Shown here piece by piece: positions 5,309 to 42,186 of a stretch of 64,000 nt of DNA. The stretch lies in NCBI GenBank assembly GCA_965644315.1, contig CBFFRQ010000087.1:1-64000 (forward strand). The letters are read 5' to 3'. Under the pieces are notes generated by a model. That model was not told the DNA's origin, ran no database searches, and saw nothing but the letters and a program-made list of their open reading frames with translations. Both the position numbers and the translations under genes were made by a program. The stretch's first letter is position 1. Each line of letters begins with the position of its first letter. Origin of the DNA: Caecitellus pseudoparvulus. Taxonomy: Eukaryota; Protista; Bigyra: Bicosoecida.

Positions 5309-8300
5309 TCAGCCGTCAGGTGCAGGTGCAGGTGCAGGCATGAAGTCGTCGCCCATCATCGCATGCACCAGCGGGGAGTCCAGGTACTTCGCACATTGCT
5401 CCAAGTATCTTTTGTTTGTCACAAGGTCTGCGTTCGTGACGTACAGCATGTGCACCCGCCACTCTGGCTTGCTTGCACCCTCCAGAGGCTCTGCAGTCAC
5501 CCTCAACTTGCTGAGCTTGCCACTCCCATACTCGCAGCCAGCCATTCCAGCAGCACCACCTGCATCACTCTCAGACACCAGCTCTGCCTTAATCCGCACG
5601 TCTGCCTCCAGCAGCTTCAGCCAGGAGTTGGCAACAGACATAGGCCCCTTTGAGCCCTGTGCACTCGCTGGACCAGAAGCGGGCGTTTTCCTCTGGCCCT
5701 CTGCGTGCGACAGCATCACGCTCCCATCCGAGAGAAGCTCATGACGTGACTCCTCTGAGAGCACCACCTGTGCGATGCCACGCAAGGCAGGGGGGACACC
5801 CGTAGGTGCGCCTTTCTCTTTTGCGTGGGTGTACAAGTCGGAGTGTGTCACTTCCACAAGCACTGCATGCTTTCCTCCCGTTCTGTCGCAATATACCATC
5901 AAAGCGTCCATACCGGGGCTATTGTCCCAAGTATGGATGACCCAGGACTCGCCTGGCCCGATGTTGCGTAAGGATGCCAGCACATCTGCTGGCACCTCGG
6001 AGTTGTCGAGCCTGACCAGGGTCGGTGGAGCGCCGAGGTCCACCTGCACATCCTTTTGGCCTTTCTTTGCTTTCGACAGATTGAGCCGCGATTGCAAATG
6101 ACTAAAATCGAGCAGTGATGAAGGCGACATCACCTCCATCAGCTCCGACGTGCTTTGGTTCTTGGGGTACTCAACGTGTTGGCATACCTCCTCGAGAGCG
6201 AACTTCTGGCCCACACCCAGCGCACGGTGTCCACACACACCAAGCGCCATGAGCGATATCACCTTACGCTCCAAGGTTTCCTGATTTGACGGGAAACGTC
6301 GCAACAAGTTCGACATCTTGCGCCGGTCAGTGCCTAGAACGTCCCTGAACGTGACCGACTCAAGTAAAGCATGTCTGGCAGCTAAGGACGCAAACAGCGC
6401 GTTGCCAGCAACAGCTGCGCGAGTCACGTTGATGCGGGACACCATGGACGCGTGCACCAGTCCGGAAAGTGGACCTTCGACCTGCGCTCCCCATGTGGCT
6501 GCTGTGAAGGTTGGCCAGGTGAGGTCATTCTTCAGCACGCCAGTTTTGAGATGCAGTTGCTTCATGCGCCGTTTGAGCATTGACAATTGTTTGGTATACT
6601 CATTAAAGAGGGCTCCACTGTGCCCCATGCGCTCTAGATCGTGAGAGTAGCGCAAGATAGCGCGCGGGATACAGCCAAAGTACACCAGCGCTTCCTTGAG
6701 CTCACGATCAGTTGGGCTCGGTGTTGTACAATCCATCTCGGTGCCTGGCAGCAAAAGCTCTGCATCCGCACGGCTGCGCAGCACTGCCACCATGGTTTCT
6801 ATAGTGGTTGGCCCCAGATCGTAGAGCACATCCCACGATTGGCTATTTGTTGTGACCTCCAGGCTGGAGTCTGTGGAGCATGCCATCACGCGCAACGTGC
6901 CGATGGCTTCATGCTGGCCCTTCCAATCACACCAAGAATCAAGGGCCTTCTGCAGGAGGCTCTGCTTTCCATCCTTCACGTACTCAAACAAACCATTCGC
7001 TTCATCCACCACCACCACGCGTGGACTGCGTAGAGGTCCCTTGCCTGGCACACCAAACAGACCTTGCAGTGCGTCCATGACTGCCTGCGGAGACGGCTCT
7101 GAAGAGCCCCGCAGGGGAAGCATGTGCGCCTGCAGCTCGTGTCCACTCAGCGCGTCCCCTGTACACGTGCTCAAGCCCCGCAGCAGCGTGTCTACTTCGT
7201 CATGAACAAATCTGCCGCCATCGGACATGTACAGCACGTCAGCCCCGAGTCCCACAGCCGAGATGCTGGCCAGCGATGCCAGTATGATGCTCTTGCCGCA
7301 CCCAGGCACCCCGGTCAGTAAATGCCCTGGACGCTCGGACACCAACGCTTGTGCACAGCTTGCAAGGAAGGCAATGCGCTCTGGCGTCCACACGATGCTT
7401 AGTGTGCGGACCAACTTGCGCGGCAGCTGCTCCAGCGTGCCATCCAGGCGCGGTCGCACGGCATGCACCTGAACGAAGTCTGAATCGTTCTGCCTGAGCG
7501 TGAGTGGATGCGATGTCGGTGGTGCGTCCTCGTCAATCGCCGCGCAGATAACATACTCGCTCTGGTAGTCTCTGAACGGCAAACCTGTGCGGCTGACGGG
7601 TGTAACGAGGCGTGTCGCGAATGCGACAACCTCGCGATTCTTGTCCAGCACAGGACTCAGTCCAGTGATGTCCACAGTTTCGTGGGGTGCTTCTTCGCTT
7701 CCTGTGGCACCAATTGCATCTTTCGCCAATCCCCCGTGTTCCCTCTGCAGTTCAGCTTTGGCTTTCTCAAACCATTCCAACACCCCGTCCTTGCCTCTCA
7801 GCATCGCTTGTCCCAGATCAAGCTTCCAGCCCAGCACATGCTGCACCGCCTGACGGTGGCTAGCATCTGGCATGTACTCCTGCCCAGCTGCAGTGTCAAG
7901 CAGCACTTCCCGCAGTGGCAGCACCACATTCGAGACACCTGCATAGGAGAGTGCAGAAGCCCATGCAGCCTCGTCTCTTTCTCTCTTCTCAGCAGCAGCA
8001 GCCTCCCTCTTTGCCTTCTCCTTGGCAGCAGCAGCTTCCTTTTTTGCCTTCTCCTTGGCAGCAGCAGCCTCCTTTTTTGCCTTCTCCTTGGCAGCAGCAG
8101 CCTCCTCCTTTTCCTTCTTCTTTGCAGCAGCAGCTTCCTTTTTTGCCTTCTCCTTGGCAGCAGCAGCTTCCTTTTTTGCCTTCTCCTTGGCAGCAGCAGC
8201 TTCCTTTTTTGCCTTCTCCTTGGCAGCAGCAGCCTCCTTTTTTGCCTTCTCCTTGGCAGCAGCAGCCTCCTCCTTTTCCTTCTTCTTTGCAGCAGCAGCC

Positions 8301-9228
8301 TCCTTTTTTGCCTTCTCCTTGGCAGCAGCAGCTTCCTTTTTTGCCTTCTCCTTGGCAGCAGCAGCTTCCTTTTTTGCCTTCTCCTTGGCAGCAGCAGCCT
8401 CCTCCTTTTCCTTCTTCTTTGCAGCAGCAGCCTCCTTTTTTGCCTTCTCCTTGGCAGCAGCAGCTTCCTTTTTTGCCTTCTTCTTTGCACTCTTCCTTGC
8501 ATCAGCATCCGCAGCTGCAGCAAGACTCAACTGCTCAGAGAGGAGGGTGTGCAATGGTCGTGCAACTCGATGCGGTTTCACTTTGAAGAGGTATTGAAGG
8601 GCCCGGTTGTCCATTATATCAGCAGGCAGGAAGAGCAGCGTCTTCATGCCGCGCGCTATCTTTCGCTCTGCAGCCTTTCGAGTTGGTCCGTCCAGGTCCC
8701 GCAGGAGACCTGGCAGCGCAGGACAAGCCAGTGCAAGAGCTGTTGCAGTTTCAGGCAAGGACCACTGCGCCAGGTGCAAAAGTGAAGTGCGACAACGCTT
8801 GCGGCAGCAGGCAAGCACAAATGCCACCACATCAAAGCACTTACCCGTGGCAGCTCAGGAGGCAGATACTCCACAGCCTCGTCCAGTCCAAGATCACGTA
8901 GTGCAGTGTGCAGTCCCCCAGGCTCATACGCAGATGGCGATACCATCGCCTGAAGGACAGAGTCACGGTTCGGCCGCACTACGCCGCTGCTGCTGAAGCA
9001 CGCTGCACCCGTGCCCTGCCAGGAGCGCCACACCTGAGCAGTTGACGCATACCCTCGTTGTGGAACACAGCCCACTCTGCCTTCCCAGGCATGCGCCATG
9101 AAGGCGGCGACTTCGACGGAAGAGGCGTGACTTGAAACGCCGAGTGAAACGCCACTGAGCAAACCGCTCGCAGCGGCCCCCCTGATCGCACTTTGGCATA
9201 CAGCTGCTGTGCAAATAGTTACTTTCAT
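5309..9228 (-). CDS. Copy 2: P-loop NTPase + PD-(D/E)xK-like nuclease protein with an internal K/E/A helical repeat (~1,279 aa if started at 9228; start uncertain)
   Basis: Exon 9228-8845 joined by intron 8844-8765 (GTAAGT...GCAG) to the long ORF ending at 5309. Walker A GVPGCGKS (~7289-7312), Walker B VVVVDEAN. C-terminal ETLERKV...PGMDALMVY...VLVEVTHS fits an E...D...ExT restriction-endonuclease-like motif. Confidence 0.75.
7983..8480 (-). repeat. 15 tandem 33-nt coding repeats (AKKEAAAAKEK and variants AKKEAAAAKKK / EKEEAAAAKEK)
   Basis: Visible units such as GCAGCAGCAGCTTCCTTTTTTGCCTTCTCCTTG on the + strand; 15 EAAAA-containing 11-mers in the translation; no spacers. Confidence 0.95.
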
Positions 9229-9598: not shown

Positions 9599-12500
9599 TT
9601 AGTCCTTCTCTAGGGCTGGCACAGCGACATCCAGGGAATTCATTCGTGGTGGAAGGAACCCCAGTTCAAATACTCCGAAAAAGCCAGGGATTTCTGCGTC
9701 CACCAGCGAGTGACTTTCTTCGTCTTCTGGCTGTGGTGTGCAGTAGATGAAGAAGAACTCAACATCACTGCTTTCCTGGATGGCTGCCGCAAGCGGAAGG
9801 TTCTTCAACTCTTCCTTTACTTCGACTGCCCCTGCTCCGCTCCCACTGGTCTCGACAGCAACCGTCCCTTCGTCTGCATGCCCACCATCAAGGATTAGTC
9901 TGATATTCAATCTTGGGGTTCTCACCTCAACATCCCTTTCATCAGCATTTTCCTCTGTCTGGAGCAACTGAGCAGCATTTGCAAGAGCCTTGTTTCGCGA
10001 TGTGCCGGACAATACTCGTGGCTCCATGAGAAGCTTGTCGAACTCCCTCTCAGAATCGCACTGAACTGTGCAGTTGAGATCAATGGGCACGCCAAATGTC
10101 CACAGGATGGCGTTCGCCATCGTGGACTTCCCCCGACGTGGACGCTTTGACATCGTGAACTTCACCTGGGACCCTTCGACATCTGTGAAGTACTTGACGT
10201 CGCAGGCAAGGTCCGCAATGTCCCTCAGGGACTGTGGTAGTACAACCTCCTCCATTGAAAGCGAACCCCCTGAAGAAACGACAAGGCTCTTCAGTATATG
10301 GCTTTGGCCGTGAGAAACCAGGGAAGACACGGTGGTCTTAATGAAAGCCACCTCAAGCTTTGCTCCATTGGGATCCTCACGTGGACTCGGCAAGGGTGGA
10401 CGCCGGAAAACAACAAAGTCCACAGCCGGAAAGTTGTGGGGTGTCCGTACCACATGCACGCTTCCGGGTTTCAGGGTCTGCACGGCATGCACATCAGTGG
10501 CTGACAGCCCAGAATCCTCAGGAGCTTGCGTTGTTTGGGCTTTGGGAAATGCGTTGGTTCCCTCGAAGAAGCAGCTCCCAAGCATTTCAGCTGGCCATCT
10601 GCTTCGCTTGCAAGATAAAGGCGTGTACTCAGAGCCAAACATGCCCATCTCCAACAATGTTGCCACAGTGTGCTCAAAATGCGTGCCATCACCAAGGAGT
10701 GCCACGCCGTTCAGCAGTCGCTTCCAAGCATCTTCTGTTGTCTGGTCAGCGTTTGACCCGGCAAGTTCTCGTTGGCGCCTAAGCAGCGCTCTCATGAGAG
10801 CATGCCTCGCTGTGTGAGACCCAAACTCAACGTTCCGGTTCAACTTTAGCAGGCTCGGGTGGATCCTGGAGAGGATCGACGCAGCAGCCAGGGTGTGAGC
10901 CAGGAGCATGGGCACACTTTGCTTTCTGTCCAACAGATTCTCTACAGACAAAGCCTGGAGTCCCTCGAGGCAGCGCTTTTCCATCGCACCCCTTTCCTCT
11001 GCCCACGCTTCGCACACGGCGGAGGAGAGGGGTGCAGGAGCAACAGCCGTGCTTGCTCTTGCCATTTCTGAAGCATGGCTCAGCGGACCAGCAACACCGT
11101 CAACTGAGTAAATGAAGTCCGTGAGCAGCTTGAAATTGCTCTTCGTGCGCAGGGCTTCCATTGCCCGAGGGGGCAGCTGAAAGGAGCAATCCTGGCCTGC
11201 TGGCATGTCTGCAACTACATCCACCTTCTTTGACCAACCGAGTGAGCTTCTGCCATCGTTTGGTCCCAGCATGAGCCGCAGCGCAAGCTCGGGCCTCATG
11301 GCTTCCATCTCGCAGAATGGATGGAGCAGGTCACGGGACCTGCCCGCATCAAAGAGCTCTTCCACTGGCTTGAACACACCCTTCTCAAAGATGCTCGCGT
11401 TGACATCAGGCGAAAAGGCAAGGACCTTGCTCGAGCGCCCCCTCCACTTGAACAGCTCCTCCAGCTCGTGCCACCACTGTGCATGTTCAAAAACAGCAAA
11501 GCATATACCGCTTCTGCGGTGCAGCTCGCCTTGCACACTGTTGGCTTCGTCGATGATGAGCAAGCTGGGACAGAAGAAGTTCCCCGCTTGCTGACCAGTA
11601 TGATGGTAGACTGAGCCACCGCGAATCATTATGCGTTTCAGGGTTTCGTGTGCATCAGCACCCTGCAGGCCAATCGACGCCATGTCTTGGCACAACTCAG
11701 GCTTCTTGAGACTTCTCGCGCAGGACAGCGCAAACCCACCTTGCATCAGACTGCGAGGAAGCTCTTTAAATGCGTCCTTGCCCGGCACCAACACTTCTGA
11801 CTTGGGCAAGTACATCACATCGCCACCCGCACCGACGCTTGCCATCAGCGCCAATGCCCGCAATGACGCAGACTTGCCAGTTCCGCGAGGGGCTGTTGTC
11901 AAGACTCCCAGCTCGATTCCGAAGCAAGTCTTCGCGGCCTTCACAAACAGCATCATTCGTCCACGAGTCAGAACATACGTTGTCACGGAAAGGTCTTGGG
12001 GTGGCATGGTCGAAGGTGATTCAGGGCGGATGCCGAACGTTGTTGGTCGCAGGCCTTGCAGAGACAAGTCTCCAAAGGGAACCTTTGTCAAGCCTGCCTC
12101 GTCGTGCCCAACGCAAAACGGCTGGGCTCTCCAAGCAGGCAAACGCAGCACTACAGCCTCTAAAATGCCGTCCATGAAGATGGGAGAGCACCCTGGCGTC
12201 CAGTTGATCCCCTTCTCGCCTTCTTCGGCATTTGGAAGGCACTTTTCCTCGGCGAGCCCTGTCATTAGCGCTTCGAAAACGTCCCACACTGTCGCCTTTT
12301 GTCGTCGGAAGGCATCCCCTGCGTCAATCATCCAGCCGAAGTTGTCGGTCAAGGCCTCCAAAGTTGCTTCATCTGTGTTGAGGAGTCCTTGGATGAACTG
12401 CTCATCCTCGACACCTGCATCTTGCAGCTGCTTCTTGGCCGCATCTTCGCCCCGCTTCTTCAGCAGCAGCATTGCACGGAGTGGCACGGCCAAGTTCACA

Positions 12501-13487
12501 ACTTCCAGCGCACGAGCTTGGCTGTTGAACCACGCAGTGCGAACAGCCAGTCCAAGCGTTGCCTTGAAGTCGGAAACCATGCTTGCAGAGACATGCTCCG
12601 GCACATGATCTTCAAATAGCTTGTCGATGTCACACTTGGCCAGTGAGTCCACAGAGTGCGAGCAAACTTTCTCCAGGATCTCAACCGTGGCCAGTCCTTT
12701 CGCCGCACTCTGCATCATCTCCAGGGCGGTCTTCACAACCCCAGACCGCTCCAGGATCTCCCACAACTCAGCACCACCAGTTTCCTGTGCTTCAATCCTC
12801 AACAGTTCGGCCTTTGCTTTGCACAAGAACGTCGGCAACTTCTTCGCCCACACTTGAGCCACGCGATTGTCGAACTTTACCCCAATCGAGCTGATTAGTT
12901 CTCCTCCGTGAGCCAGTTTCAAGCTGAGGTCGATTGGCATTTCAAGAAGGGAAGCAAGAAGCTCCAATTGTCTGATCTTTCTGAAGGGTTCGAACCGAAG
13001 GCCAAGATCAATCTGAGCAATGACGCCGCTTGAGACGAGGGCTTGAAGCAAGTTTGCGTCGGGAGGTGTCTGTAAACAAGGCCAATCGAAGTGCAGTTCG
13101 TGGTGACTCGCGCAAGCACCGTCCATGCACAATCCAACGTACTTTACACCTCTCGAGGGCAGCAAGGGTCAACTTCGCAACCTGTCCTCGTGGATTCAGT
13201 TTAGCAAATGTCGTCAGCAGCTTCTCTTGCTGGCTCCCCTCAAGTTCAGTCCACCACGAGGTGCCCGAGAGCACTTTCCTGTCCGACCCAGGTCCTTCCA
13301 CCGCAGAACCAGCCACAGATGAAGCATGGCGTGACAAACTGGGTGCCTGGTGCGGCATCGGCACACATAGTGGCCGCCAGTGCACAGCGGCAGCAGCCAA
13401 TTCCGCCCCTGCACTGCGCAACGCCAACAGAGGCCGCACTGACGCTCCCACAGCACGTGACAGAGTCAGTGCAGCTTTAAAGCTCAT
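9599..13487 (-). CDS. Copy 3: presequence-like N-terminus + P-loop NTPase + PD-(D/E)xK-like domain (1,271 aa)
   Basis: ATG 13487 (MSFKAALTLSRAVGASVRPLLALRS...). Intron 13142-13070 (GTACGT...TTTACAG) joins LERCK|TPPDAN in frame. Walker A APRGTGKS, Walker B LLIIDEAN, C-terminal FEHTV...FPAVDFVVF...AFIKTTVS. Confidence 0.8.
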
Positions 13488-17596: not shown

Positions 17597-19383
17597 TTAC
17601 AGGTACTCAGCCACGGACATGGGCATCTCCTCGATCTGGGTGTGGTAGAAAGACTCAATGTCCTGCATGAAGGTGACATCCTCGCCGGTGACGAAGTTGA
17701 TGGCGACACCCTTGCGGCCGAAGCGGCCAGAGCGCCCGATGCGGTGGATGTAGTTCTCGCGGTTGTTGGGCAGGTCGTAGTTGATGACCAGAGACACCTG
17801 CTGCACGTCAATGCCGCGGGCCAGGAGGTCGGTGGTGATGAGGACGCGGCTGGAGCCGGAGCGGAACTCCTGCATGACCAGCTCGCGGTCGCGCTGCTCC
17901 ATCTCGCCGTGCGTGCAGGAGACGGTGAAGTCCTTGGACTTCATGCGGGCGACCAGCCAGTCCACCTTCCGGCGGGTGTTGCAGTAGATGATGCTCTGGG
18001 TGATGGTCATGCTCTTGTACAGGTCGCACAGCACGTCGAACTTGAACTCCTCGCGGTCCACCTTGATGTAGAACTGCTTGATGCCATCCAGCGTCAGCTC
18101 TTGGCGCTTGACCAGGATGATGGCCTGGTCCCGCATGAACTTGGTGGTCAGCTCCAGGGCCTCAGAGGGCATGGTGGCGGAGAACAGGGCAACCTGCATG
18201 TCCTTGGGCAGGCCAGCAGAGAAGATCTCGTAGATCTGCTCCTTGAAGCCGCGGTCCAGCATCTGGTCGGCCTCGTCCAGGATGAAGAGCTTCAGGTGCT
18301 CCACAGCCAGGGCACGGCGGTTGATCATGTCAAAGACACGGCCGGGGGTGCCCACCACCACCTGGACGCCGGAGCGCAGGGCGGCGATGTCGTCAGCCAC
18401 GGCAGTGCCGCCGACGCACGCGTGCACCTTGACGGACATGTACTCGCCGATGGCGGAGACGACCTTCTCGATCTGCTGGGCCAGCTCGCGAGCAGGGGCC
18501 AGGATCAGGGCCTGCACCTGGGGCAGGGACTCATCGATGCGCTGCAGCATGCCGATGGTGAAGGTGCCGGTCTTGCCAGTGCCAGACTGGGCCTGTGGTG
18601 GGGGGGGAGGAGAGCCAGGGGCAGGTGAAGTGCACGTGAAGCTGCTGTGTCTTCAGCTGGCGAATGTGGGGCGCTAGTACGGCAGAAAATTACACCAAAC
18701 GAAGAGGACACACTGAAGCGGTCACTTTGCTGGACAGCCACGCCACACAAAACTCCATGAGCGCGCTGTTTGGGACTGCCCGCGCAGGCGCTTTGAGCTG
18801 CACAGACATGACACGCACCTGTGCGATGGTGTCACGGCCCTCAATGACGGGCATGATGGCGCGCTGCTGGATAGCAGAGGGCTTCTCGAAACCGTAGGCT
18901 GCATGGGGGCGGGGGTGGGGCGAGTGCCGTTCCTGCCCGGCAACAAAGTTTGGGGGGCGGCGTGGGGCTGAAACGCCACGGCGTTCCCCTCCAGCGCACT
19001 GCCCTCTCTCCATCACGCACCGCGGATGCCACGCTGCAAAGGGCGGAAGAGGGGAATTCGTGCAAGTTAAGCTCCTTGTTTCATCGCAGAGGGCACCGAG
19101 GGCGCGCTGCCTTTGCGCAAGCAGCTGTGCAACGTGGTGCACTGCCGCTGCCAACAAAACGCTGCTCCGGAAAGGCCACGCACCAGCAGGTCGTCCTTGA
19201 GCTCCATGTCATCGAAGGACTCGACGATCTTCTCGTAGTTGGTCTTCACCTCACCGGAGTCATCGACACCAGGGGCGGCCTCTGCACGAGCAGGTGAGCA
19301 TGACTTGGTGTGGAGAGCAGAACACGAAGGGGTTGGCTGGCGCACGCACCGGTGGCGGCGGGGGCGGGGGCATCAGCAGCCAT
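17597..19383 (-). CDS. EIF4A: Eukaryotic initiation factor 4A (DEAD-box helicase), 5 exons, 406 aa
   Basis: Exons 19383-19350, 19281-19184, 19033-19021 (13-nt micro-exon), 18898-18819, 18592-17597, summing to 1,221 nt. Motifs [48 protein letters not shown]. Confidence 0.97.
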
Positions 19384-19864: not shown

Positions 19865-22800
19865 TCAGTCCACCTTGACAGCGGAAGCAGATGGAGCAAA
19901 CGCGCTCCCGGCCCCAGCACTGCCAGGGCCGTCTTGCTGGGCTCCATGGTGGTGGTGGTGGTGGTGGTGGTGGTGGTGCCGGTGGGTGCCACCTCGCCCC
20001 ACACACGTCGGCAGCACCACCCGCAGTGGCAGGCGCACCAGCACCACAGCCGCCGGCGCAATGACAGCCTGGGCCACCGACAGCGGCTGCATGCCATCCC
20101 CCACCTCCACTGGTCCGCCGTCGTTGGAGCCCTGCATGTGCCACGGCGCCGCCGCCACCACAGCCACGATCCCAGCCACCGCCGCTGCGACATCCAGGCA
20201 CGTCGCCCAGTGTGGCTGCCCCCTGATGCAGCGCTCCCCCCAGCAGTGGCCAAACCATGCACTGTGCAAAGGTGTGTGGTGGTGGTGCTGCGTGTACCCC
20301 ACCGCCGCCGCCACAAGCACCGCACATGCCTCCAACACCAGCACTACTGACAGCAGCAGCAGCGGCGTGTAGAAGGCCTCTCGCCCACGCTGCTCCAGCC
20401 AGTTGGACGTGAGGATGGTGATGAGGGCGAACTGCGCCAGGAGCAGCACGCTGATGATGGGCAGGGGCAGGGCGAGGTGCGAGTGGCTGTACCAGTCCTG
20501 CAGGTCATGCGCTGTGCCCTGTGCCCAGCCCGGCAACCACGTCACCCGTCGGTGGTGCCGGTGGTGGTGGTGATGATGGTGATGGTGGTGGTGGTGATGG
20601 TGGCGTGTTTGTGGCTCGCCTGGTGCGTGAGGGGGCTGGCTGCCAGGAGCCGGCGGCGGCCCCACTGCTGACAGCTGCGCCTCAGACCTACGCGCGACGA
20701 TGCGAGGGGTGGGAGTCTCCCACACGTCCTCCTCGCCCTCCTCCTCGCTGGAGCCCATGTCTGGCCGAGGACTGTCCACATCTGGCAGGCTGCGGGTGCT
20801 GGAGATGTCGCTGTAGGAGCCCGAGTCTGACAGCGCCTCATCCTGGGCCGCCGCCTCTGCCTCCACCGCCGCGGCGATTTCAAGCAGGTGCAGGTGCCGC
20901 TGCACGACCTCAGGTCGCGTGACACCCATGCTCAGGAGCGTGGCAGCACGCGGCAGCTGCCCACTCCACACGTCCCCGTGTCCCTGGGGCGCCAGCTGGT
21001 CCACGCTGTGCAGGGCCCGGTGCATGGAGGGTGCTGCGCCGTGTGGCCTGCCCATCACGCTCACTGCGCGTCTGCGGGCCTGCTCCACACCCAGGCTTGC
21101 ATGGGCGTCGCCCGAGGCCGAGCGCGTGCGAGCATGAGCCGTGGAGGGCGTGACGAGGGTTCTGGTGTGGGGAGCCGTGGCGACGAGAGTCATGGTGCTG
21201 GGCGGCGGACCAGCTGCCGCAGACGCGCCACTGGACAGCACTTCGCACCCCACCACTGGCCCCTGCTCACTGCAGCTCTGGACGGCAGGCACGACGGCGT
21301 CACGGGGCGCCTCAGGCTGGGTTGCCGGCGGCGCTGGTGGCTGGGTAGCCAGAGCTTCAGAGCCATGCCTGGCCAGGGGGGACGCTGGGAAGTGCCGTGG
21401 GGTGACGGACACGCTGCGCGAGCTAGGCGTGCGGCTGCCTTGTGACGTCAGCGTGCTCAGTCCCGACTGCAGCCCCGCCCCTTCATCCAGCGTCATGCTC
21501 AGCCCCCGCACAGCACGCACAGCCGAGTGCGTGGGGGAGGGAGCCACACCCCCCTGGGGTGGCGGTGCGGGGGAGTAGCCTTGCAGCTGCACTGGCGCAG
21601 AGGGTAGCGCAGTGGGCAGCGAGTGTGTGGAGGAGTGGGGCAGCGAGGTGGAGGAGGAGGGTGCGCCGTGGGCCTTGGGCGCGGGCGGGTGGGTGGACCG
21701 CGCCACCTCCTCCCGCAGCTGCTCCAGCAGGGTCGCCTCCACCAGGTGCTTGTCCACCAGCTCGCCGATGTGCATGGAGAGGATGAAGGAGGGGATGACG
21801 CTCTGCAGGGACAGGACGAGGCTGGCGAGGGCGGTGATCATGGCCACCACCAGCGCCGCGATGAGCACCACCTGCGCCGACTTGCTCTCCTGCGCCAGCC
21901 CAGTCTTGCCGGACGTGTCTGGCACGAACACCCGCACGGCCAGGGCGCAGAGCAGGGCGGCTGCCAGGACCGCCCCCTGCAGCGACCGCCCGATGAAGCT
22001 GGGCCGCCCGCACCAGAACAGCCGCATCTGGGCCCTGCGGCGTTCACTGAGGCTGGGCTGACCCGCCTTGGCCAGCTGAGCCTCCAGGTCAGTGGCGTGG
22101 CTGCCTCGGGCGTGGGCGGCGGGGGCGAACCCCGTGGAGCGCGTGGAGGCTGTGGAGGCGAAGGAGGGCGCCGTCGGCACGCGGATGCTGCCTCGGAACA
22201 CGTGTTCCGCGCTGGCCGAGGGCGCCGTCGGCGGTTGGATCTGGTGTGGCAGCAGGCCGCTGGCGCTGCGATACCGCGCTGCCGTGATAGCGAGGAGGTC
22301 ACGACTGCTGCCGCTGCGGGAGACAGCGGGGCGGGACGCGCTGTGCCCCCCTGCCCGGGGGCGGTTGGCGCCCACGCCGAGACTCTGCACCCCTGAGCGA
22401 GCGGGGGGCAGGGCGGCAGGGCGCCCGCCCCCAAACGACCCGGATCGACTGCGGCTGTGGTCTGCCGGGGAGAGGGGTCTCTCTCCGGAAACGATGGTGA
22501 GGGGCGTGGACTCGGGTGCTGACGCGAGCTGCAAGGCCGGGGCTGACATGGAGCTGGCTGCCGCGATGGTATTGGCTGCGGCGCGGGTGTTCTGGCGCCG
22601 TCCAGGCTCTGCCGCCTCCGCTGCTGCCACACAGGCACGGTGCAGGGCACGGCGCGTGACGCGCGCCACTGCCTCCTGGGTGGAGATGGTGTGCTCCACA
22701 GTGTACATCTTCCACCGCGTGGCAGTGGCCAGCACCGTGACGCCTGCAGACAGCAGGAACATGGCCACGGACAGGTTCACTGCGCCCGCATACGACACGA

Positions 22801-23761
22801 TGATAGATCGCAGGTACAGGTCGGTGGACAGCAGCCAGCACGTGGCCAGCCAGAACTGCACAGGGATCTCCACCAGGTCCCTGAAAATGACGATGGAGGC
22901 CCGGTTCAAGTAGTTCGCGAAGGAAAAGTGGAACTCCCCCAAGTGCAGGTGTGCGTGGTCTTGCATGAACTGCAGGCGGTGGTCAGCGAACTTCAGCGCC
23001 TCGGCCAGGCGTGCATGGCGCCGAGCGACGCAGGGCTGAGACACCATGTACGCCATGCGCACCAGGGGTGGCGCCGTCACAGCCACCTCCCCATCCTCCC
23101 CACCTGTCTCCAGTGATGCGGCGGGGGTGCTGTACCCGAGTGGGGTTTCCGGTGGTTCGCTGACCACGCGCCACGCACAGCAGCTGCCACAGGGGGAGGT
23201 GGCGTCAGAACCCAGTCGCAAGCGCCCTGCAGAGTCCAGGCCCAGCTTGTACCGCAGCAGGGCCACTTGCATGCGCAGGCGAGCGTGTGCGGAGTCTGAG
23301 CCGTACTTGGCTTCCCACGTCCGCCACTGCCGCACGGTGTACTGCCAATCAGCGATGAGCCCCGCGGTGAAGAGGATGTAGAAGCCCGCCACGGTGAAGA
23401 GGGTGATGTGGATGTGTTCGAACTCCAGCGCGGCACTGTTGGAGTGGCTGAACACCTCCGATCCCGCCAACTCGAACACGAACACGACGAAGGCGATGAG
23501 GCCAAGGATCAGCACTTCCCGGTACGCGGACCGCAGCATCTCCTTGGCGGCAGGCTTGTGCCGCACTGCATGCTCCAAGCGCTGGAGCAGCCACTGGATC
23601 ACCAGCACTCCGCCTGGGGGGTCGGGGGGGGGCGGACGGTGTGTGCGCCGCTTGCTTACGGGTCACGGAGCAGGGCAGGCGGCTAGCAGCCAGCACGCAC
23701 AGATGGTGACGATAGTCAGCATCTCCGGCACTGCAGGGTGCAACTGCTCGTCCACAGCCAT
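19865..23761 (-). CDS. MLO: MLO-like multi-pass membrane protein with a C-terminal extra 4-TM domain and two poly-His tracts
   Basis: ATG 23761, intron 23700-23614. Motifs match MLO-family TM regions: YREVLILGLIAF (cf. ELMLLGFIS), FEHIHITLF, WRTWE, FSFANYLNRA..IFRDLVEI...FW, LFWCGRP. Confidence 0.78.
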
Positions 23762-27916: not shown

Positions 27917-29515
27917 TCACCGTGAGAAGATGCTGTCCACATCAGCAGGCAGGTGTGGCATTTGGATGGCCAAGAACACTTCCAACTCCGGGATATCTTC
28001 GACGGTAGCCACTAGGATGCTCGCAGTCGGCCCTTGCTTTGGCGACTGCACCCGCTCCAAATTGTCTGCGTAGCCAGCCAGGGCGACGGGGCGCCCCCAG
28101 TGCACAGCGACCTCCGCATACCCTAAGCGGGCGGCACCGCTGCCCAAGCCAGCCACAAGCAAGGTGCCTGCGGTGCTGGCGCTCCAGGCCTGCACTGTGG
28201 CTTCGAGCTCTGCTGCCTGTGTGTCCGCAGTCACTAAGTACACGTCTTGCAAGTCGGCTGCCGGAGCTGCCTGCGCCACCTGCTGCGCCTGTTCTGCGTC
28301 GCGAAAGAACACTGCCACACGGCGCTGCTTGATGGCAGGTAGCTGCAGGACTTCAATCACATCCTCCAAGCGCTCCGTGGTGTCCATGAGGATGCTGTGG
28401 TGCGACGCCGCTGCCTGCGGAGCTCGCCGCCAATGGCACACCTCCACAAACACGGGCTGCCGCATGTGTCGTGCCACTTGTGGCAGCCCGTCCAGCCCTC
28501 TTGCAGAAGCCGATGCCAGAATCTGGCACTTTGCAGGCAGCGAGGCCAGGATGTCCTCTATCGTCTCTCCGTACCCCATGTCCAGCAGCTCGTCCACGGC
28601 GTACAGAATGCAGCAGCGCAACGCATCCATGTCCAAGGGGCCACGCTGCATCAGGTCCAGCGAGCGCCCTGGGGTTCCAAACACCACCTGCGCGCCACCT
28701 TGCAAGGCTTGCACGTCCTGCAGGACAGACCTGCCCCCCACACACGCGTGCATGTGCAGCGGCACCGTCCCCGCCATGGCCTGTACTTGACCCTGCAGGT
28801 TAAACACCCACTCGCGCGTGGGCGCCAGGAACAGCACCTGCACCTCTGGAATATCCGCATCAGCACATTGCAGTGCGCGGATGGACAGTGCCACTGACTT
28901 GCCTGACCCTGACGCGCTCTGCGGAGCGCACATTGCGAGTCAAACAAAAGCCTTGGAAACAGACAGCACACACGCGCCCAACCACGCACCTTCACGAACA
29001 CATCTTCGCCTTGCAACATCGGGACTATGCAGAGCTGCTGCACTACCGAAGGTTTCTCAATGCCGTGACCTGCGCATGTACAGAATGACTAGCGTGTTGG
29101 GCAAACACTGCCACCAGCGTTTCACACGCATGCAGCGGCAGTAGCGCAGGCCTCTCACCTTCCACACCTTCCTGCGCATAGAAGCATCGAATGAACGTGT
29201 CCTCGTCGCGGCAGTGGTTTGGGCATGCGCTCGGCATGGCACGTGTGCACTGCACTGTGACACTGAAGCCCAGAGCCAGAGCCAGACACGCACCAGCAGG
29301 CTCGGTGGCAGCCCCATGTCTTTGAAGCTGCGGCACTTGGAGTCATCAGATGCTTCAGTCAGTACTCTCACCCCTGTCTTGCCGTCAGGGCCGCTTGCTT
29401 GACTCTCTTCGCTGCCGCTGCCCTGGCTTTGGCCCTGTGAGTCTGCTGCCGCGGCGACCACGCCTTCGGTGTAGGCGGAGTACGAGGGCGCCCCCGCAGG
29501 CTGTCCACTGGCCAT
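27917..29515 (-). CDS. Divergent eIF4A-derived DEAD-box pseudo-helicase (438 aa), catalytic motifs degenerate
   Basis: Exons 29515-29294, 29171-29159 (13 nt), 29069-28990 (80 nt), 28918-27917; frame intact. Keeps GIEKPSVVQQ, SGSGKS, APTRE, HACVGG, GTPGR, but DEAD reads YAVD and HRIGRSGR reads DNLERVQS. Confidence 0.85.
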
Positions 29516-29902
29516 TGAGAAAACCTTAAATGGTTAAATGTGTGTGCTATTCTGCTGGAACTCTGAGCCAAGCGCTGTGCACAAAGGCTTTGCATTGTAT
29601 CAAGCCGCAGGGAATACAGCGTGCCACACGAGAAAGACGCTTCAGCTGCCCCAATGACGATCAGGCCGCACGACCCAGAACAGCACAGCAGCGTCTATAG
29701 TGAAAAGTGACACGTGGCCAACTCCCTGCTGCACTGGCCCCTGCGCAGTGCCCAGCCAGTCGTTGCCAATGGACTGCTTCGCACAGAGCTCCAACGCAGC
29801 AGAAAGACAGTGGGCCAGACGCGACGCCTGGCACCCGCCCTGCGCTACACAGTGTATGTAGCCTTGCCCGGGCCTCGACTTGGCTCATGCGCAGCCACAC
29901 GC

Positions 29903-35331: not shown

Positions 35332-38300
35332 ATGCGCTTCCACGGCGGCCAACGCGTCTCATCTTCCCGGCTGGGACTCCTGCCAGCTGCCCTAGTGACT
35401 TTCTCACTGGCCCTGCTGTGCTGCACGGAGGGTGGGTGAGCCGCCGGGTGACACAGGGCACACGTACAACTGCATCATAACATGCACACTTCCCATGTTT
35501 CACGTCACAGTGCACGCAGGTGGTGGCAGTATTTCTCCTCCAGCCCCATCCCCCCCCAGCCAAGGTGTGCACTCGCACCGCTCAAGCACGCGGCTCTTCG
35601 CCCAACCCACTGCACCGTGCCAATCGCGCTTTGCTGCTTCACAGTGTGTCCCGTGGGCACGGCTCTCAACACCTCCTCTGCCTTGTGTGTCAGCTGCCCA
35701 CCAGGCAGGTACGGTGTGAGTGGCACAGGTACCCCTTGTGCCTGCTGCCCAGCGGGGCGATTTGCAGACTCGCCTGGACAAGTTCAATGCGAGACGACCC
35801 CGGGAGGGCACTTTTCTGAGGCATGTGCCGCTATACCATCCCCGTGTACTGATGGCTATTTTGCTCCCCCTGGCGCTTCTACCTGCTCCGCATGCCAGCA
35901 AGGCAGAGTGGGGTCCGGACCTGGAGTGGACACCACAGAGCAATGCGGCAAGGCGTGTCCAGCTGGGTACTGGTGCCCAGCAGGAACGGCTTCGCATCTC
36001 AAACAGTCCGAAGAGTGTGGCGCAGCTCCTGCATACTGCCCTGCAGGGGCTGCGTCCCGGAAAGTTGCTGAGGCAGGCCGTTACGTCTTCCCACCTCCGC
36101 CGCTTGGCAGCTCTGCAGCTTCCTGTCCAAAAGGGCACTGGTGTCTGAAGGGCATCAAACACCCGTGCCCTGATGGTACCATTCAGAACTTCACAGGTGC
36201 CTCTACATGCACAACTTGTAGACCTGGTACAGTTGCGGATGGCAGACATGAGCTGTGTGTCAAGCCAACATCGTCGGCAAGTTCGACAGCCTTTCCATCT
36301 CCATCACCCTCGGGTACCCCATCCACGTCAGGCACGCCCACCTCCACCGGCACGCCATCCACGTCAGGCACGCCCACCTCCACCGGCACGCCATCCACGT
36401 CAGGCACGCCCACCTCCACCGGCACGCCATCCACATCAGGCACGCCCACCTCCACCGGCACGCCATCCACATCAGGCACGCCCACCTCCACCGGCACGCC
36501 ATCCACGTCAGGCACGCCCACCTCCACCGGCACGCCATCCACGTCAGGCACGCCCACTGCTGCGGCAACAGGCACACCGACACCATCAGGTGATGCCACA
36601 CCATCCAGCACGCGTTCCCCCACCTCCACGAGCTCGGCCACGTCGTCTGTGTCGCCCACTGGCACACCCTCGGGTACGCCATCCACATCAGGCACGCCCA
36701 CCTCCACCGGCACGCCATCCGTATCCAGAACTCCAACTACTTCCGCGTCAATGACGCAAGCCCCCGTCTGCCAGAAAGGATTCGAACCTGTGGGCATCGT
36801 CTGCGAGGCCTGTAGCCCGGGCAGGTACGCTGATGAAGTTGGAAGCAATCCCTGCAAGCTGTGTCACGCAGGAACGTTCAGCGATAAGACGGGAAGCAGC
36901 GCGTGCAGCCCATGCCCTGCAGGTCGGACGTCAGAGGCTGGTGCTGCTTCGTGCCAAGGCTGCCCCAGGGGATTCTACAAAACACCGCAGATGCTTGCCT
37001 GTGAGGCATGTACTCCGGGAACGTACTCTTCCGATGAAGGCGAGACAGTGTGCAGAACATGCAGACCTGGCACAGCGAGCGCCGCCCACGGCGCTTCCAC
37101 TTGCACCGCCTGCAGGCCTGGATTCTTTTCCAATGGTCACCTACCCGCTCACGTCCAGGTCTGCACACGTTGCGACCCGGGAACGGGTAGCATGCAGGGC
37201 TACCATACTTGCATGCGCTGCAACGCAGACCAGCCGCAAGTGAAGGGTTTCACCTGTATTTCGACATCTGCTTCCCCAACTCCGACAACAAGCAAGAGTG
37301 CAAGCCCTTCTCTCAGGGAAGAAGCCCCCGTGACACACGCTGGCACGACTACCCCCACTGCGTCAGTTTCGGCGACACCAACGGTTTCGCCTTCACCCTC
37401 CGTGAGCCAAACCGCAAGTCACAGTGGGCTCCCCCTCCGCGAAATTCCGCTTCGCGAAGAATCGCCGAAACCCTCATCCTCCGTCACAGCGACCACCAGT
37501 CCGTCTCAACTCAGCAGCAACGATGCAGCGTCCACTGAGGCACTGGTGAGCGGCTCCCCTCCAGCATCCCCCTCACCCTTGCGCACTGCGGCGGCCACAC
37601 ACTCGGCGACAGTGTCCGCTGCCTCAGCGCCAACCACCTCCTCAACCCAAATACCAACTCCGAGCACAGCCCTCTCAGGTTCGCCCTCTCCCTCAAGGTC
37701 ACCCACTTCATCAGTCAGTGAGTCAGCCACCGGTACGCCAGCCATCACCCACTCTGCGACTGGATCCAGCATTCCAACACGCACCGCATCTGGCACGCCC
37801 ACCGCAACGTCCACCAGCTCGCCATCGCCGACAGCTACTGCCTCAATCACCAAAGATGCGAGTACTCCAACAAACCCTTCAAGTACACGTCGTGTAGGAA
37901 GCAGGACGCCCCAGCCTTCGCCATCCGCTCAGGCGGCCGCATCCCCAAGCAAGGGTACCGAGGCACCCGAAATGCCGACTCACTCCAACCTCCCGCAACA
38001 GCCATCAGCATCGCAGGCTGCAGCACAGAGCCCCCACGTCCGCACTTCGTCAAACATCACAGCCACCCCGAGCATGTCCTCGGCAGCCACTGCATCAAGG
38101 GGGGCAAAATCATGCCAGTCGGCATGGTGGGTGGTGTGTAGCGAGGAAGATGACCTGGACCCGGCCAATGGCAGGGGCACTCGCGTGGCCCTGCTGCCAG
38201 GAACCATGTGGACACACGAGGAAAACACAGAGACAGGGCTCCTTGATCTTTCCCCAGAAGAGGTGCAGCTCTGTCCGCGCTTCGGGGCCTGCCAAACAGG

Positions 38301-41300
38301 TGGTGTTGGGGGAGCTCAGACACGGTGCACTCGTGGCCACACAGGGGGGCTTTGCGCCGCCTGCCAAGCTGGATTCGGGGCTGAGACGAGCCTTCTAGGC
38401 ACGCTCTCAGCAGACTGCCGCCCTTGCCAGCCTTGCTCAGAGTGGGCCTTGCCGACGTGGCCTTGGGCGCTCGCCATTTTCGTCGTCGTGTCCGCTGCAG
38501 TCCTGATCGCGTCACATTGCTGTGTCAGCAAGCGAGGCACGCCTGCTGGAGACCTAGCGGCCGGCTCTGCCTTCATCCTGACAAGTTTCATCTTCACCCT
38601 GGCAGTTGGGACCCTGGCAGGTGCACAGCGGGATGAAACCCTACCTAGCGTGGGCGCAGCTGCGACATCTGCCACTGACTGGGCCGCAGCGTGCGGGCGA
38701 ACGCCAGAGAAGGTGGCCGTGTTTTCTGAGGGATACGTGCCTCCTGTGGATAACGTGACGTGGGTAAGCGACGCAGGCTCTGTGCCCCCCGCAGGCGCGT
38801 CAGTGTACGATCTGGACCTCCCGCTGGTCATGCGGCGACTGCCAGTGCTCCTTGCGACATCGCTGGGCTTGCTCCCCGCCACAAGCAGCCCTGTTTTCAG
38901 CTGTGTTGTAAGCGCCCTTGGGGCACCCTGGGTGGTGAACTCCACGTACGTTTTCGGGTCCATCCATTTGGCGGGAGCCCTAGCTTGCCTGGCACTGGTA
39001 GCCATGTGTGTGAACACCACGCTGCTGGTGACGGAACATGGCTTGGCCAGTCCCAGAGACTACGTGTGGAGCCTACACTTACCCCAAGGCAAGCAAGAGC
39101 GGGTAGACGAAGAGACACAGTACAGTCGGCCACTACTCAGGGGCCTGTTGGCCTCATGGACGTGTGTGCGAGCAGCCTTGAACGTGTACCTGCTCACGTG
39201 GGGGGCAGTTCTGGGCAGCATCCTCCTGTTGCTGGGGCCGCTGTGGAGCAAGCGTGGCACGGACGTGCTGGTAGCCCTCGGCATGACTTGGGGGCCCGGC
39301 GCAGTGCCCTGGCTCCGTGAGGTGTTGTGGATCCTGTTCGGACTGCATGGCGTCGTTGTCCCGCTCCTCCTCGCGACCATGCTAGGCTGCTGGGCGCCTG
39401 ACATGCTGCACAAGTGCCACCACACAAGCGCCACAATGGCTGCCTTAGCACCTGGCATCCGGGTGGAGCTCAACCCGCGTGTTGCAGCATGGCTATCAGA
39501 CGCAGTGCTGGAGGGGAACGCGTGGGTGCCGCGTGGGCTGGAGTCAACGCCGCACTTGCAGCTTGGCCGCCGCGTGGCCAGCGCCGTCGCACGCCGCACA
39601 GCAGCTGAGCTCCGCAACCGCTCCTGCATGCTGGGAAGCTGCTGTCCCGCACACTGGCTCGTGCCCAGCCGCATGCTGCTTGGTTCGTTGATGATGTCTG
39701 CACTGTGGCTTGCCCAGCCCGGAGCACTGCGCCTCCGCATGGTGCTCATCCCCCTCATCCTGTCAGCTGCGATCACAGCTCTGCGCCAGCCCTACGCGGT
39801 ACACGAACTCAACGCCATGGACTTGTACGCGCATGTGGTCGCACTTCTGCATGTTTCAGCTGTATTCTCAGATGCTTCACCTGGCAGCCTCACGATTCTG
39901 GCGATCCTTGAGCTGCTTGTACTGTTGCGGCTGTCTCTTGCCATGGCTCGTGCGACGTGCAGACCAGTGCACCTTTCCATGGTGGGAGTGACTGCAGCTT
40001 TCAGCGTCGCCTTGGAGAGTCTCCCGCAGCACTTGGCGCGGGAGGACGCGCTGACGGCATCAGACTGGTGCGACCCCGTCGATTGCATCCGCGCTGGGTT
40101 TGTGGATCGGGGCTGCCAAAGATGTGGCTGGCCGCTGCAAGGCATGCGCAGGGCAGCATCTGCCAGCGCGACGCAGCAGTGGAGAGACTTAGTGTCGCAA
40201 GTGGCTGCCATTACCATTCAGCAAGCCAGCCGGGGGGACGACGTCGATCCCCAGCAGCTGCTTCAGGCAGTCATGCGAGTGCTGGACTTGTCCCTGCTCA
40301 TGCCTGTGGGGCCTGTGGAGTGCTTGTTGCGGCGACCCATTGTGGGTGCCAAGTTCAAGGCCGACATTGCAGAATCAATCGTGGAAGCCTTGTCTTCCAC
40401 GCCACCCCCATCCCGCCAGCTGTCACCAAAGGCTCGCCAGAAGCACACCAAGCACTTGGGACTGCACCACACATTGCAGCAGGGTGGTCGCTGGCACGAC
40501 GCTGACGAACTACCGTCGAGCTCTGCCACCCAAGTTGTATTCATCCCGTGTGACGATGGCGGGGATGAATCTGTGGATGGCCAAGCTACACAGCAGGTGA
40601 AAGTGCTCAGCGCGGCTGCAGGGAGTCCGGCGCGCACACAAGAAATGGAGCCTGCACACCTTCACCATGTACAGCTGGATATCCCAGTCGAAGATTCAAG
40701 TGCAAGAACTGCGTCGACTGCCTCGTGGGAAGCCCTTCCCGGTGAAGCAACGCTTCTGCACTTTCACGCTGAGCCGCTCGCTGACGGAGGTTCCGAGGCT
40801 CACAACACATCGGGGGCCTTCCTAACACCTATGACAAAGACAGAAGTGCATGAAGGGGAACGCAGGCGCGGAATGTGGTCAAGCATGGATGCAAAGGCGG
40901 CCCCAGCCCAGGCCTTGGGCGATGGCAGCGGATGGTTGGCAAGCTCGCCACGAGCAGAGCAGCAACCCAACTCCTTCCCGGAGGTCAGAACGCCAGAACC
41001 ACTTGCAAGCATGAGCAGACGAAGTGCAAGGACTCAATCATCGATAACTCAAGCTCAGCGCGATGGGGAGTCCTGCATAAGGCGTGAAAGCAAGTCTGGC
41101 ACGGAAGAGCAATCGCCAGTGGAACTGCCGGCAACCTCGAGCACCGCACGTGAACAAGAAAGCCAGTGGGTAGCTCCACACCAGCTACCCTCACATAGTC
41201 CACCTTCCCTGGCAATACCAGGAACACGCGAGCGGCCGGCAGAAGTAGCTTCAAGCGCAGACGCAAGCACACAGTCGGACTCTTACTCCGGTGCACCACA

Positions 41301-42186
41301 GCACCTCGAATCAGAGCAGAGCACCGGCACCACTTCCCGCACTAGTCTGGGAGCCTGTGAATCAGAGCAAAGAAATCTTCATTCAAGCACTGCCGAAGGG
41401 GGGTCGTGTCCTTCCCAACAGAGCGCAGTCACTGGGGAGGCAGAGATCGCACGTGGCCAGCGCCCGACCCACAAGCACACGCACACAGCTGATCCTGCTG
41501 ACACTGCATCGCCACTTGGAGTAGCAGCACAGCACACAAGCGTGCGTGATGTGGTCGAAGAGGAGGACTGTGATTCACCTGAGGAGGCTGAATCCCTGCA
41601 GCCGACTCCTGCAGCGACAGACGAGTCGACCACTCCCAAGCCGGGGGAAGCGGGAGTCACTGGCCCCGGCACACCTCCTTGTGTCAAGCAGCGCAGTGAC
41701 GATGCGACCGCCAGCACTCAAGCCACCACGCGCAAGACAGATTTAGGTGGGCGTGCCGAAAGCGAGGGTGCATCAACTGCATCCCAGCCGGCGCAGGGTC
41801 CAGGCAGGGCGGCATCGGACTCGACCAGCAGCGTCCAGACTATGGCGAGTCGGGGGCAAGCTGCCAAGGCCAGGTGGAAGCAAGCCAGCCTTAAAGTATC
41901 AGCTGCACGTGCGGCATACCTCGCCGCTGCGGGAGTTGGCAAGGACTGCAAGTTGCCAGTGCCGCGGACTCCCGCTGGACAGCGGGAGGCTTCGGCGGCA
42001 GAGCAAGTGGCACCATCTCCCATGCTTTCTCAAGGCACAGTAGCCCGCATCGCAGCCAAGTTCATGAGAGGAGGCGCTCAGAAGAAACCCCGTGGCACCA
42101 TTCGACACAGTCCTCCGCGGGTCAGCCTTCCTACACCCTCGGCAGCGGTAGCGGCAACAGCGACTGAGGAAAGGGACCCGAACTGA
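35332..42186 (+). CDS. Large cell-surface protein: signal peptide, Cys-rich GCC2/GCC3 (ephrin-receptor/TNFR-like) repeats, Ser/Thr mucin tracts, multi-TM region, disordered tail
   Basis: Proposed exon 1 [33 protein letters not shown]; two phase-1 introns lead to VCPVGT; many CxxCxxGxY/F repeats; [13 protein letters not shown] just before hydrophobic segments at ~38450-39950. 5' exons tentative. Confidence 0.75.
36325..36720 (+). repeat. 36-nt tandem coding repeat ([12 protein letters not shown]), ~6.5 copies plus one detached copy
   Basis: Unit ACGTCAGGCACGCCCACCTCCACCGGCACGCCATCC from 36325 to ~36557 and again at ~36685-36720. Confidence 0.92.

Follow-up and report, generated by a model that had tools for sequence, protein, structure and literature searches.

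The window analysed here, 64,000 nucleotides from a single contig of Caecitellus pseudoparvulus, carries two genes of the eIF4A family on the minus strand, 8.5 kb apart. The first is a canonical eIF4A gene (19383-17597) with five exons of 34, 98, 13, 80 and 996 nt that encode 406 amino acids, and it is the likely parent of the second. The latter, an eIF4A-derived copy (29515-27917), consists of four exons (29515-29294, 29171-29159, 29069-28990 and 28918-27917; 222, 13, 80 and 1002 nt, respectively) that together give a frame of 438 codons, open and free of stops as originally predicted. Exon 1 begins with the ATG and encodes a 62-residue acidic head rich in Ser, Gly, Gln and Ala (pI 4.3), followed by the first helix before the Q motif. 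The 13-nt micro-exon encodes EGVE-G (KGVE-G in a contig of sequencing run X1) and is homologous to positions 19033-19021 of eIF4A, the third exon carries the Q motif at 29064-29038, and exon 4, with 333 codons plus the stop, encodes the remainder of RecA domain 1 and the whole of RecA domain 2. The three introns are all GT-AG and lie at 29172-29293 (122 nt, phase 0), 29070-29158 (89 nt, phase 1) and 28919-28989 (71 nt, phase 0). By aligned codon and phase, they correspond to eIF4A introns 2, 3 and 4, respectively (3/3), and the 13-nt and 80-nt exons are likewise common to the two genes. The claim of an identical exon architecture holds for these three introns and two small exons, but not for the additional 5'-most intron of eIF4A (68 nt), which has no counterpart in the copy.

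Contigs from the RNA-type runs X1 and X2 read through 29294-29540 without a break (29294-29406 in X1 and 29322-29540 in X2). A 44-nt intron-like stretch within exon 1 was ruled out, as it is out of frame and is read through by both runs. In a further contig (169 nt, depth 3.7) of X1, a seawater metatranscriptome, exon 1 is followed by 11 letters and then by exon 3. Together with two ambiguous border bases, these letters make up the 13-nt micro-exon; therefore, introns 1 and 2 have been removed as predicted. The joint of intron 3 appeared in none of the contigs. Such a spliced contig of the copy was present in one of the three RNA-type runs compared. No run that contains the stretch is recorded as RNA; for X1, X3 and X5, spliced eIF4A joints served to judge the RNA content. 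At the joints listed, eIF4A contigs from all three runs had intron 4 removed at CT..AC and carried the letters of the micro-exon where exon 2 gives way to exon 4, indicating that these runs contain spliced RNA of this species. Near-identical pieces of exon 4 of the copy also occur in X1 (401 nt, one difference), X3, X4 and X5, and these could be DNA. The single X1 contig supports transcription of the copy with correct splicing at introns 1 and 2.

Elsewhere in the window, a tandem family of P-loop proteins occupies the minus strand at 2-1009, 909-1682, 1743-3140, 9602-13168 and probably 5312-8854, the last of which contains a long KEKAKKEAAAA-type repeat. This family is large and intron-poor, with 24-33% mutual identity, and lies in a lower-GC stretch; its members had no Pfam match above the cut-off, and weak AAA_16 and nSTAND matches were seen. 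A minus-strand frame of 1,265 codons (19868-23662) has membrane-like segments, runs of His and a weak match to Mlo (E 0.008, below the cut-off). A plus-strand frame of 2,244 codons (35452-42186) contains a Cys repeat of the ephrin-receptor-like kind, together with a tandem repeat of 36 nt at 36305-36720.

Helicase motifs and predicted fold

The copy and the neighbouring eIF4A share 112 of 402 aligned residues (27.9%), and this identity is distributed unequally between 77 of 201 residues in domain 1 (38%) and 26 of 169 in domain 2 (15%; Fisher p 8e-7). Motif names and roles are the established ones and were compared with the list in PMC9539457. Relative to the family consensus, the copy retains the upstream Phe, the Gln of the Q motif, the P-loop, PTRE, GG and TPGR. 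The Q motif reads GIEKPSVVQ, its aromatic residue being changed from Phe to Ile, the P-loop of motif I (SASGSGKS, 28895-28918) is intact, and the RNA-contact motifs of domain 1 are kept within 28664-28822 (PTRE at 28822-28811, GG at 28738-28733 and TPGR at 28675-28664). All 10 residues of these three contact motifs are retained, compared to 49 of the 87 invariant columns of domain 1 as a whole; a caveat is that Gly, Pro and Arg, which a GC bias favours, abound in the motifs that are kept.

The remaining motifs are lost. Motif II has changed from DEAD to YAVD (28592-28603), so that both catalytic (Walker B) acids are gone, and motifs IV, IVa/QxxR, V and VI of domain 2 (28043-28315) have all disappeared. 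The stretches that now stand at motifs III, IV, V and VI read ASA, VFFRDAEQA, GLGSGAARL and DNLERVQS, the last in place of HRIGRSGR, and even its sole remaining Arg is a Leu in run X7 and in P0001, a database protein 96% identical to the copy. The original prediction was correct in the motifs that it listed as kept and in the changes at motifs II and VI. It was also right that motifs III and V are lost, although its registers were off by one or two residues: in the family alignment, SAT faces ASA rather than SAS, and ARGID faces SGAAR rather than AARLG. Motif IV, the HG/QxxR stretch and the aromatic residue of the Q motif are losses beyond that list. Only 11 of the 81 family-invariant columns of domain 2 are kept, and the domain is acidic (net -9 vs. 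-1) with an Ala content of 18.5% vs. 2.4%. The Pfam DEAD family matched the copy with an E value of 2.9e-20, and Helicase_C gave no match.

In eIF4A itself, each of the single changes DQAD, R362K and R365K is reported to abolish helicase activity (PMC7470955). Because single changes in motif II or VI are already sufficient, the copy is predicted from its motifs to have lost both ATP hydrolysis and RNA unwinding, which supports its earlier description as catalytically dead. Of the features of an active DEAD-box helicase, it has the two RecA domains, the Q motif and motif I, and it lacks motifs II, III, IV, V and VI. Loss of the catalytic residues with retention of the fold, by which PMC9539457 characterizes a pseudohelicase, describes the copy well.

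An AlphaFold2 model built with an 82-row alignment consists of two RecA domains (pLDDT 84.5, pTM 0.54); the alignment is rich in eIF4A, and the model leans on those rows. Modelled domain 1 aligned with DDX20 (Z 23.1, rmsd 1.5 over 159 residues) and modelled domain 2 with eIF4A3's C-terminal domain (Z 17.7, rmsd 2.6 over 155 residues; both by VIA-align). Domain 2 folded alone from its single sequence was uninformative (pLDDT 44). Language-model features of residues 165-333 alone, which are free of any alignment, matched Helicase_C clusters at 0.95. In a search of solved structures, the first 25 rows for the copy were all eIF4A or eIF4A-III chains, the best being eIF4A with an E value of 1e-27 over residues 2-330; the neighbouring eIF4A was closest to human eIF4A-I (487 bits vs. 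468 for eIF4A-III).

Selection and strain variation

The open frame is more than chance would leave. When eIF4A was allowed to drift neutrally to 28% identity, the frame stayed open in 0 of 300 runs at a GC content of 0.6 and in 1 of 300 at 0.7, in simulations of substitutions only, with indels ignored. When scored against a profile of 70 eIF4As, all of them from other lineages, domain 1 of the copy reached 167.5 bits; neutral sequences of equal identity averaged 76 bits, with 106.5 as their maximum, and none attained the observed score (0/200 in each of two settings). Identity in this domain also differs among codon positions (0.51/0.67/0.39), and a three-sequence branch model rejected omega = 1 under both frequency models (2dL 95 and 53). 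Domain 1 is clearly under purifying selection.

The record of domain 2 is mixed. Its score on the same profile was -0.3 bits vs. a neutral mean of -8, a value reached by 25/200 and 14/200 neutral sequences and hence not significant, and the outcome of the branch model depended on the frequency model used (p 1e-4 vs. 0.13). Nevertheless, domain 2 keeps its hydrophobic core pattern despite 15% identity. Among changed positions, hydrophobic columns stayed hydrophobic at 28 of 52 (54%) in domain 2 and at 23 of 37 (62%) in domain 1, compared to 32% and 41%, respectively, in neutral runs, and the contrast between hydrophobic and polar columns was matched in 0/300 runs for either domain, although the placement of gaps may favour the real alignment in this test. 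Since dS was saturated, standing at its upper bound in five of the six fits, we quote neither an omega value nor an age. At odds with that saturation, 27 of 55 fourfold sites are identical between the copy and eIF4A, slightly above the expectation from composition (p 0.016).

The question that follows is whether constraint continues. Between the copy and DNA run X7, the listed coding differences comprise 9 synonymous and 12 non-synonymous changes, among them the non-conservative L194Q and G249R, and the resulting pN/pS of 0.44-0.55 is not significantly below 1 (p 0.055-0.125); 31 of the 47 strain differences are listed, 16 near piece ends being left out. This value, the flat identity of domain 2 across codon positions (0.38/0.39/0.40) and the restriction of orthologues to one species cluster in the protein searches would all suit a paralogue that once had a function and is now being released from constraint: although still transcribed and with its frame open, it would be turning into a pseudogene, with a selection signal inherited from an earlier phase. 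We regard such decay as unlikely, although it is the alternative that survives best. The differences listed for X7, X1 and X4 include no stop or frameshift, exon 4 of P0001 and of P0121 has none either, and the 13-nt micro-exon is kept even in a divergent haplotype. In addition, the core pattern of domain 2 and the frame survived the fall to 15% identity, which indicates that selection outlasted the loss of the motifs. Long-term constraint on the copy is therefore clear, and present-day constraint is suggested. A pseudohelicase should also be expressed and under selection, and the copy offers one spliced contig and long-term selection in this regard, together with the non-significant strain ratio.

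A 180-nt block at 29027-29207 differs sharply between the window and runs X1 and X7: exon 3 has 8 differences within 45 nt, intron 1 another 8 within 26 nt, and the micro-exon the change of Glu to Lys. The flanks of the block differ by 1-2%. In DNA run X7, 75 nt of intron 2 are replaced by 77 other letters. Either the block is an allele of old standing, or gene conversion brought it in from another copy as yet unseen.

Contacts with eIF4G, RNA and rocaglates

The original prediction proposed a pseudo-helicase that acts as a translation regulator, and noted that eIF4A mutants of this kind can be dominant-negative. A dominant-negative eIF4A mutant acts on eIF4F (PMC7470955), and eIF4G has its anchor on eIF4A's C-terminal RecA domain, which binds it alone with a Kd of 1.3 μM, whereas the N-terminal domain showed no binding (PMC3064780). 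In human eIF4A, the combined change D265R/E268K/D296A/T298K impairs eIF4G binding (PMC7470955). At human D265, E268, D296, T298 and R45, the copy has Glu, Gln, Asp, Gln and Glu, so that one of five residues is identical, compared to four of five in the neighbouring eIF4A; this numbering was transferred by hand, and the alignment of domain 2 is uncertain. Because the domain that anchors eIF4G is the most altered part of the protein and its contact residues are changed, entry of the copy into eIF4F, which a dominant-negative effect would need, appears unlikely from the sequence. As a separate observation, the eIF4A of the window (17597-19383) has PARE at motif Ia, where the family has PTRE, and a Lys at human E268, a position changed in the human mutant impaired in eIF4G binding.

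A regulator or decoy that binds host eIF4G, or the vIF4G of a giant virus, and stalls cap-dependent initiation, for example under stress or infection, is accordingly quite improbable in our estimation. Two of the four domain-2 contacts are still acidic (D265 to Glu, and D296), helicase-dead eIF4A mutants do not support initiation and the PRRVAA mutant is dominant-negative (PMC7470955), Mimivirus-like viruses rely on their own IF4F (10.1101/2025.09.30.678621), and a conflict between host and virus could be expected to yield fast, lineage-restricted change. However, T298 is changed to Gln and R45 to Glu (Lys in the X1 haplotype), and the anchor domain has 11 of 81 invariant columns left. Furthermore, the PTRE motif whose alteration makes PRRVAA dominant-negative is intact in the copy, and the study of viral IF4F considers a chimeric host-virus IF4F unlikely (10.1101/2025.09.30.678621). 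The branch model, finally, gave no sign of omega above 1.

Two further roles suggested at the outset fare no better. An ATP-dependent RNA clamp needs the RNA motifs of domain 2 and the arginines of motif VI, and the copy has lost both. As a decoy for toxins, the copy would have to present the rocaglate pocket, which in human eIF4A comprises residues 158, 159, 163, 192, 195 and 199 and in which F163L is a resistance change (PMC10250355). In the copy, the pocket reads T-P-L-Y-T-I, including F163L, and would make a poor toxin sink.

Ancestry and likely role

Protein phylogeny alone does not reveal which family member gave rise to the copy. In a tree of 37 rows, the copy sits next to the outgroup with a branch length of 10, which is a long-branch artefact. 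Placement on a 25-row backbone left 31 of 49 positions unrejected with domain 1 and 34 of 49 with all columns, including the eIF4AIII stem (AU p 0.07 and 0.48) as well as a number of placements within the host lineage. The all-column set rejected a direct sister relationship to the neighbouring eIF4A, and the inner eIF4AIII branches were mostly rejected, with an eIF4AIII sample of five to seven partial rows, none of them from this lineage. These trees do not tell eIF4A from eIF4AIII as the parent. In addition, a one-residue insertion and a DEAD-Q variant that are common to the neighbouring eIF4A and its relatives are absent from the copy. Among the 120 matches listed, the nearest eIF4A with a name is from Bicosoecida sp. 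ms1 (78%), followed by oomycetes at 72-74%; this one gene points to a marine, bicosoecid-like stramenopile as the probable host.

Because the trees leave the placement open, descent from eIF4A rests on the introns. All three, together with the micro-exon, also occur in a related species' eIF4A gene (L001, the sole locus from a pattern scan for eIF4A of the lineage; at 5.2 kb, it is too short to show a neighbouring copy). Two eIF4A proteins that carry the insertion, P0129 and P0132, read straight through all three intron positions on contigs that are probably genomic (7.2 kb and 13.3 kb, too long for mRNA), so the introns look lineage-specific. Sequence homology between the introns of the two genes was not detected, as the three matching pairs among the 12 tested gave p values of 0.11, 0.012 and 0.95, none of which remained significant after correction. 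Nor was there a segmental duplication of flanking genes: when the window was compared with itself, the only pairings were those of the two helicases and of the P-loop family at 1-13 kb. The simplest history that we infer is a gain of introns in the lineage, followed by duplication and then by loss of the insertion.

This lineage has multiplied eIF4A, since the intact paralogues P0128, P0137 and P0410 form a sister clade to the neighbouring eIF4A (100/97). By eye, the copy shares ALQC, a His before the Q motif and a Leu at F163 with P0128 and P0410. The copy would be a local genomic duplicate, and the most extreme of a set of eIF4A paralogues restricted to this lineage. In their own right, P0128, P0137/P0411, P0410, P0123 and P0125 are catalytically intact, mosaic eIF4A paralogues; P0137 and P0410 have at human F163 the Leu that is the rocaglate-resistance change, and P0123 and P0125 share patches with P0128, which suggests either chimeric assembly or gene conversion. 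The source of P0410 names it Symbiodinium sp. KB8, but the protein nests in this lineage and is likely a contaminant of that assembly.

Descent from eIF4AIII, with a role in an exon-junction or splicing context, is very unlikely by our reckoning. It would account for the absence of the insertion typical of eIF4A in this lineage, the unrejected eIF4AIII stem agrees with it, and among solved structures the copy scores higher against human eIF4AIII (96 bits) than against human eIF4A-I (82 bits), albeit with yeast eIF4A at 100. However, three shared and seemingly lineage-specific introns, the tandem position beside eIF4A and the residues in common with the eIF4A-derived P0128 and P0410 all argue against it. 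The original statement that the copy arose by duplication of eIF4A is thus sustained by the introns as far as genomic duplication within the eIF4A family is concerned, but the trees do not single out eIF4A; its closest relatives are eIF4A and eIF4AIII, not an unrelated, active DEAD-box subfamily.

Relatives of the copy itself are confined to strains of 96% identity. A word-based search through 5.8 billion proteins, in which 7,996 candidates were scored, found no orthologue beyond these, a full HMMER scan of 1.84 billion representatives returned only P0001 (96%), and the single match among 4,049 candidates in a search with domain 2 alone was again P0001. After P0001, the best full-length matches are eIF4As, and a metagenome scan with exon 4 gave 359 pattern matches with no relative among them. 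The cluster of P0001 has two members, on contigs of 23,099 and 17,090 nt, and contigs of the same sizes carry the eIF4As P0125 and P0123, which are 97-98% identical; the linkage of copy and eIF4A is probably kept in these two further assemblies.

Few pseudo-helicases, namely Utp25, bacterial PriA and MUT-15, are described in the sources consulted. Like eIF4A (eIF4A-I/II; yeast Tif1/2, PDB 1FUU/2VSO), the copy is a two-RecA core without extra domains and has motifs Q, I, Ia, GG and Ib. Unlike eIF4A, it lacks DEAD, SAT, IV, QxxR, V and VI, its eIF4G and rocaglate contacts are changed, its acidic head is longer, and it is known from one species cluster only. The engineered eIF4A mutants PRRVAA, DQAD, R362K and R365K (PMC7470955) resemble it in having lost motif II and VI function, but they keep the whole eIF4G-binding surface, whereas domain 2 of the copy is 15% identical. 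Utp25/Def likewise combines a DEAD-box fold with vestigial motifs and has been proposed to serve as a cofactor or scaffold; as described in PMC9539457, it is a protein of 721 amino acids, conserved from yeast to man, essential and tested by mutation. In contrast, the copy is lineage-restricted, recognisably eIF4A and retains its P-loop. MUT-15 of C. elegans, a dead helicase that acts as a scaffold in an RNA pathway, provides a precedent for an adaptor role; unlike the copy, it has known partners and a structure, and its abstract gives no tie to eIF4A (10.64898/2026.09.04.749402). A literature search that covered main texts and few subscription journals found no published description of an eIF4A-derived pseudo-helicase. 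The copy is a real, lineage-restricted gene and a candidate pseudo-helicase undescribed in the literature searched.

With moderate confidence, we favour the reading that the copy is a spliced and selectively kept derivative of eIF4A, predicted neither to hydrolyse ATP nor to unwind RNA, and likely a non-enzymatic adaptor outside eIF4F. An adaptor role appears likeliest because selection kept the nucleotide pocket and RNA-contact motifs of domain 1 and the core of domain 2. Domain 1 would still hold nucleotide through the P-loop Lys and the Q-motif Gln, probably without Mg2+, and would contact the RNA backbone via PTRE, GG and TPGR, with weak binding of nucleotide, RNA or both. Domain 2 would fold and present a new acidic, Ala-rich surface to a putative partner other than eIF4G.

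More speculatively, and with little probability in our view, the copy could be a host decoy drawn from a fast-changing family. Giant viruses infect bicosoecids, and a remodelled domain 2 might capture a viral eIF4G-like scaffold, or the domain-1 motifs might capture viral mRNA, and so poison viral IF4F while sparing host eIF4F. If this were true, dead eIF4A copies recurring in unrelated protists would represent a convergent antiviral device. Weak or non-canonical ATPase activity is the least credible alternative, for although the P-loop and the Q-motif Gln are intact and acids follow the altered motif II (YAVDE), both Walker B acids have disappeared along with the His and Arg of motif VI, strains differ in the last Arg of that motif, and any one of the DQAD, R362K and R365K changes is enough to abolish the helicase activity of eIF4A (PMC7470955).

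Since the parent gene lies close by and the sister paralogues are intact and only mildly diverged, the path from enzyme to non-enzyme can be traced one residue at a time. The copy splits the helicase cleanly, with domain 1 keeping its nucleotide and RNA contacts and domain 2 only its core, and it offers a direct test of what the eIF4A shell can do without ATP turnover.
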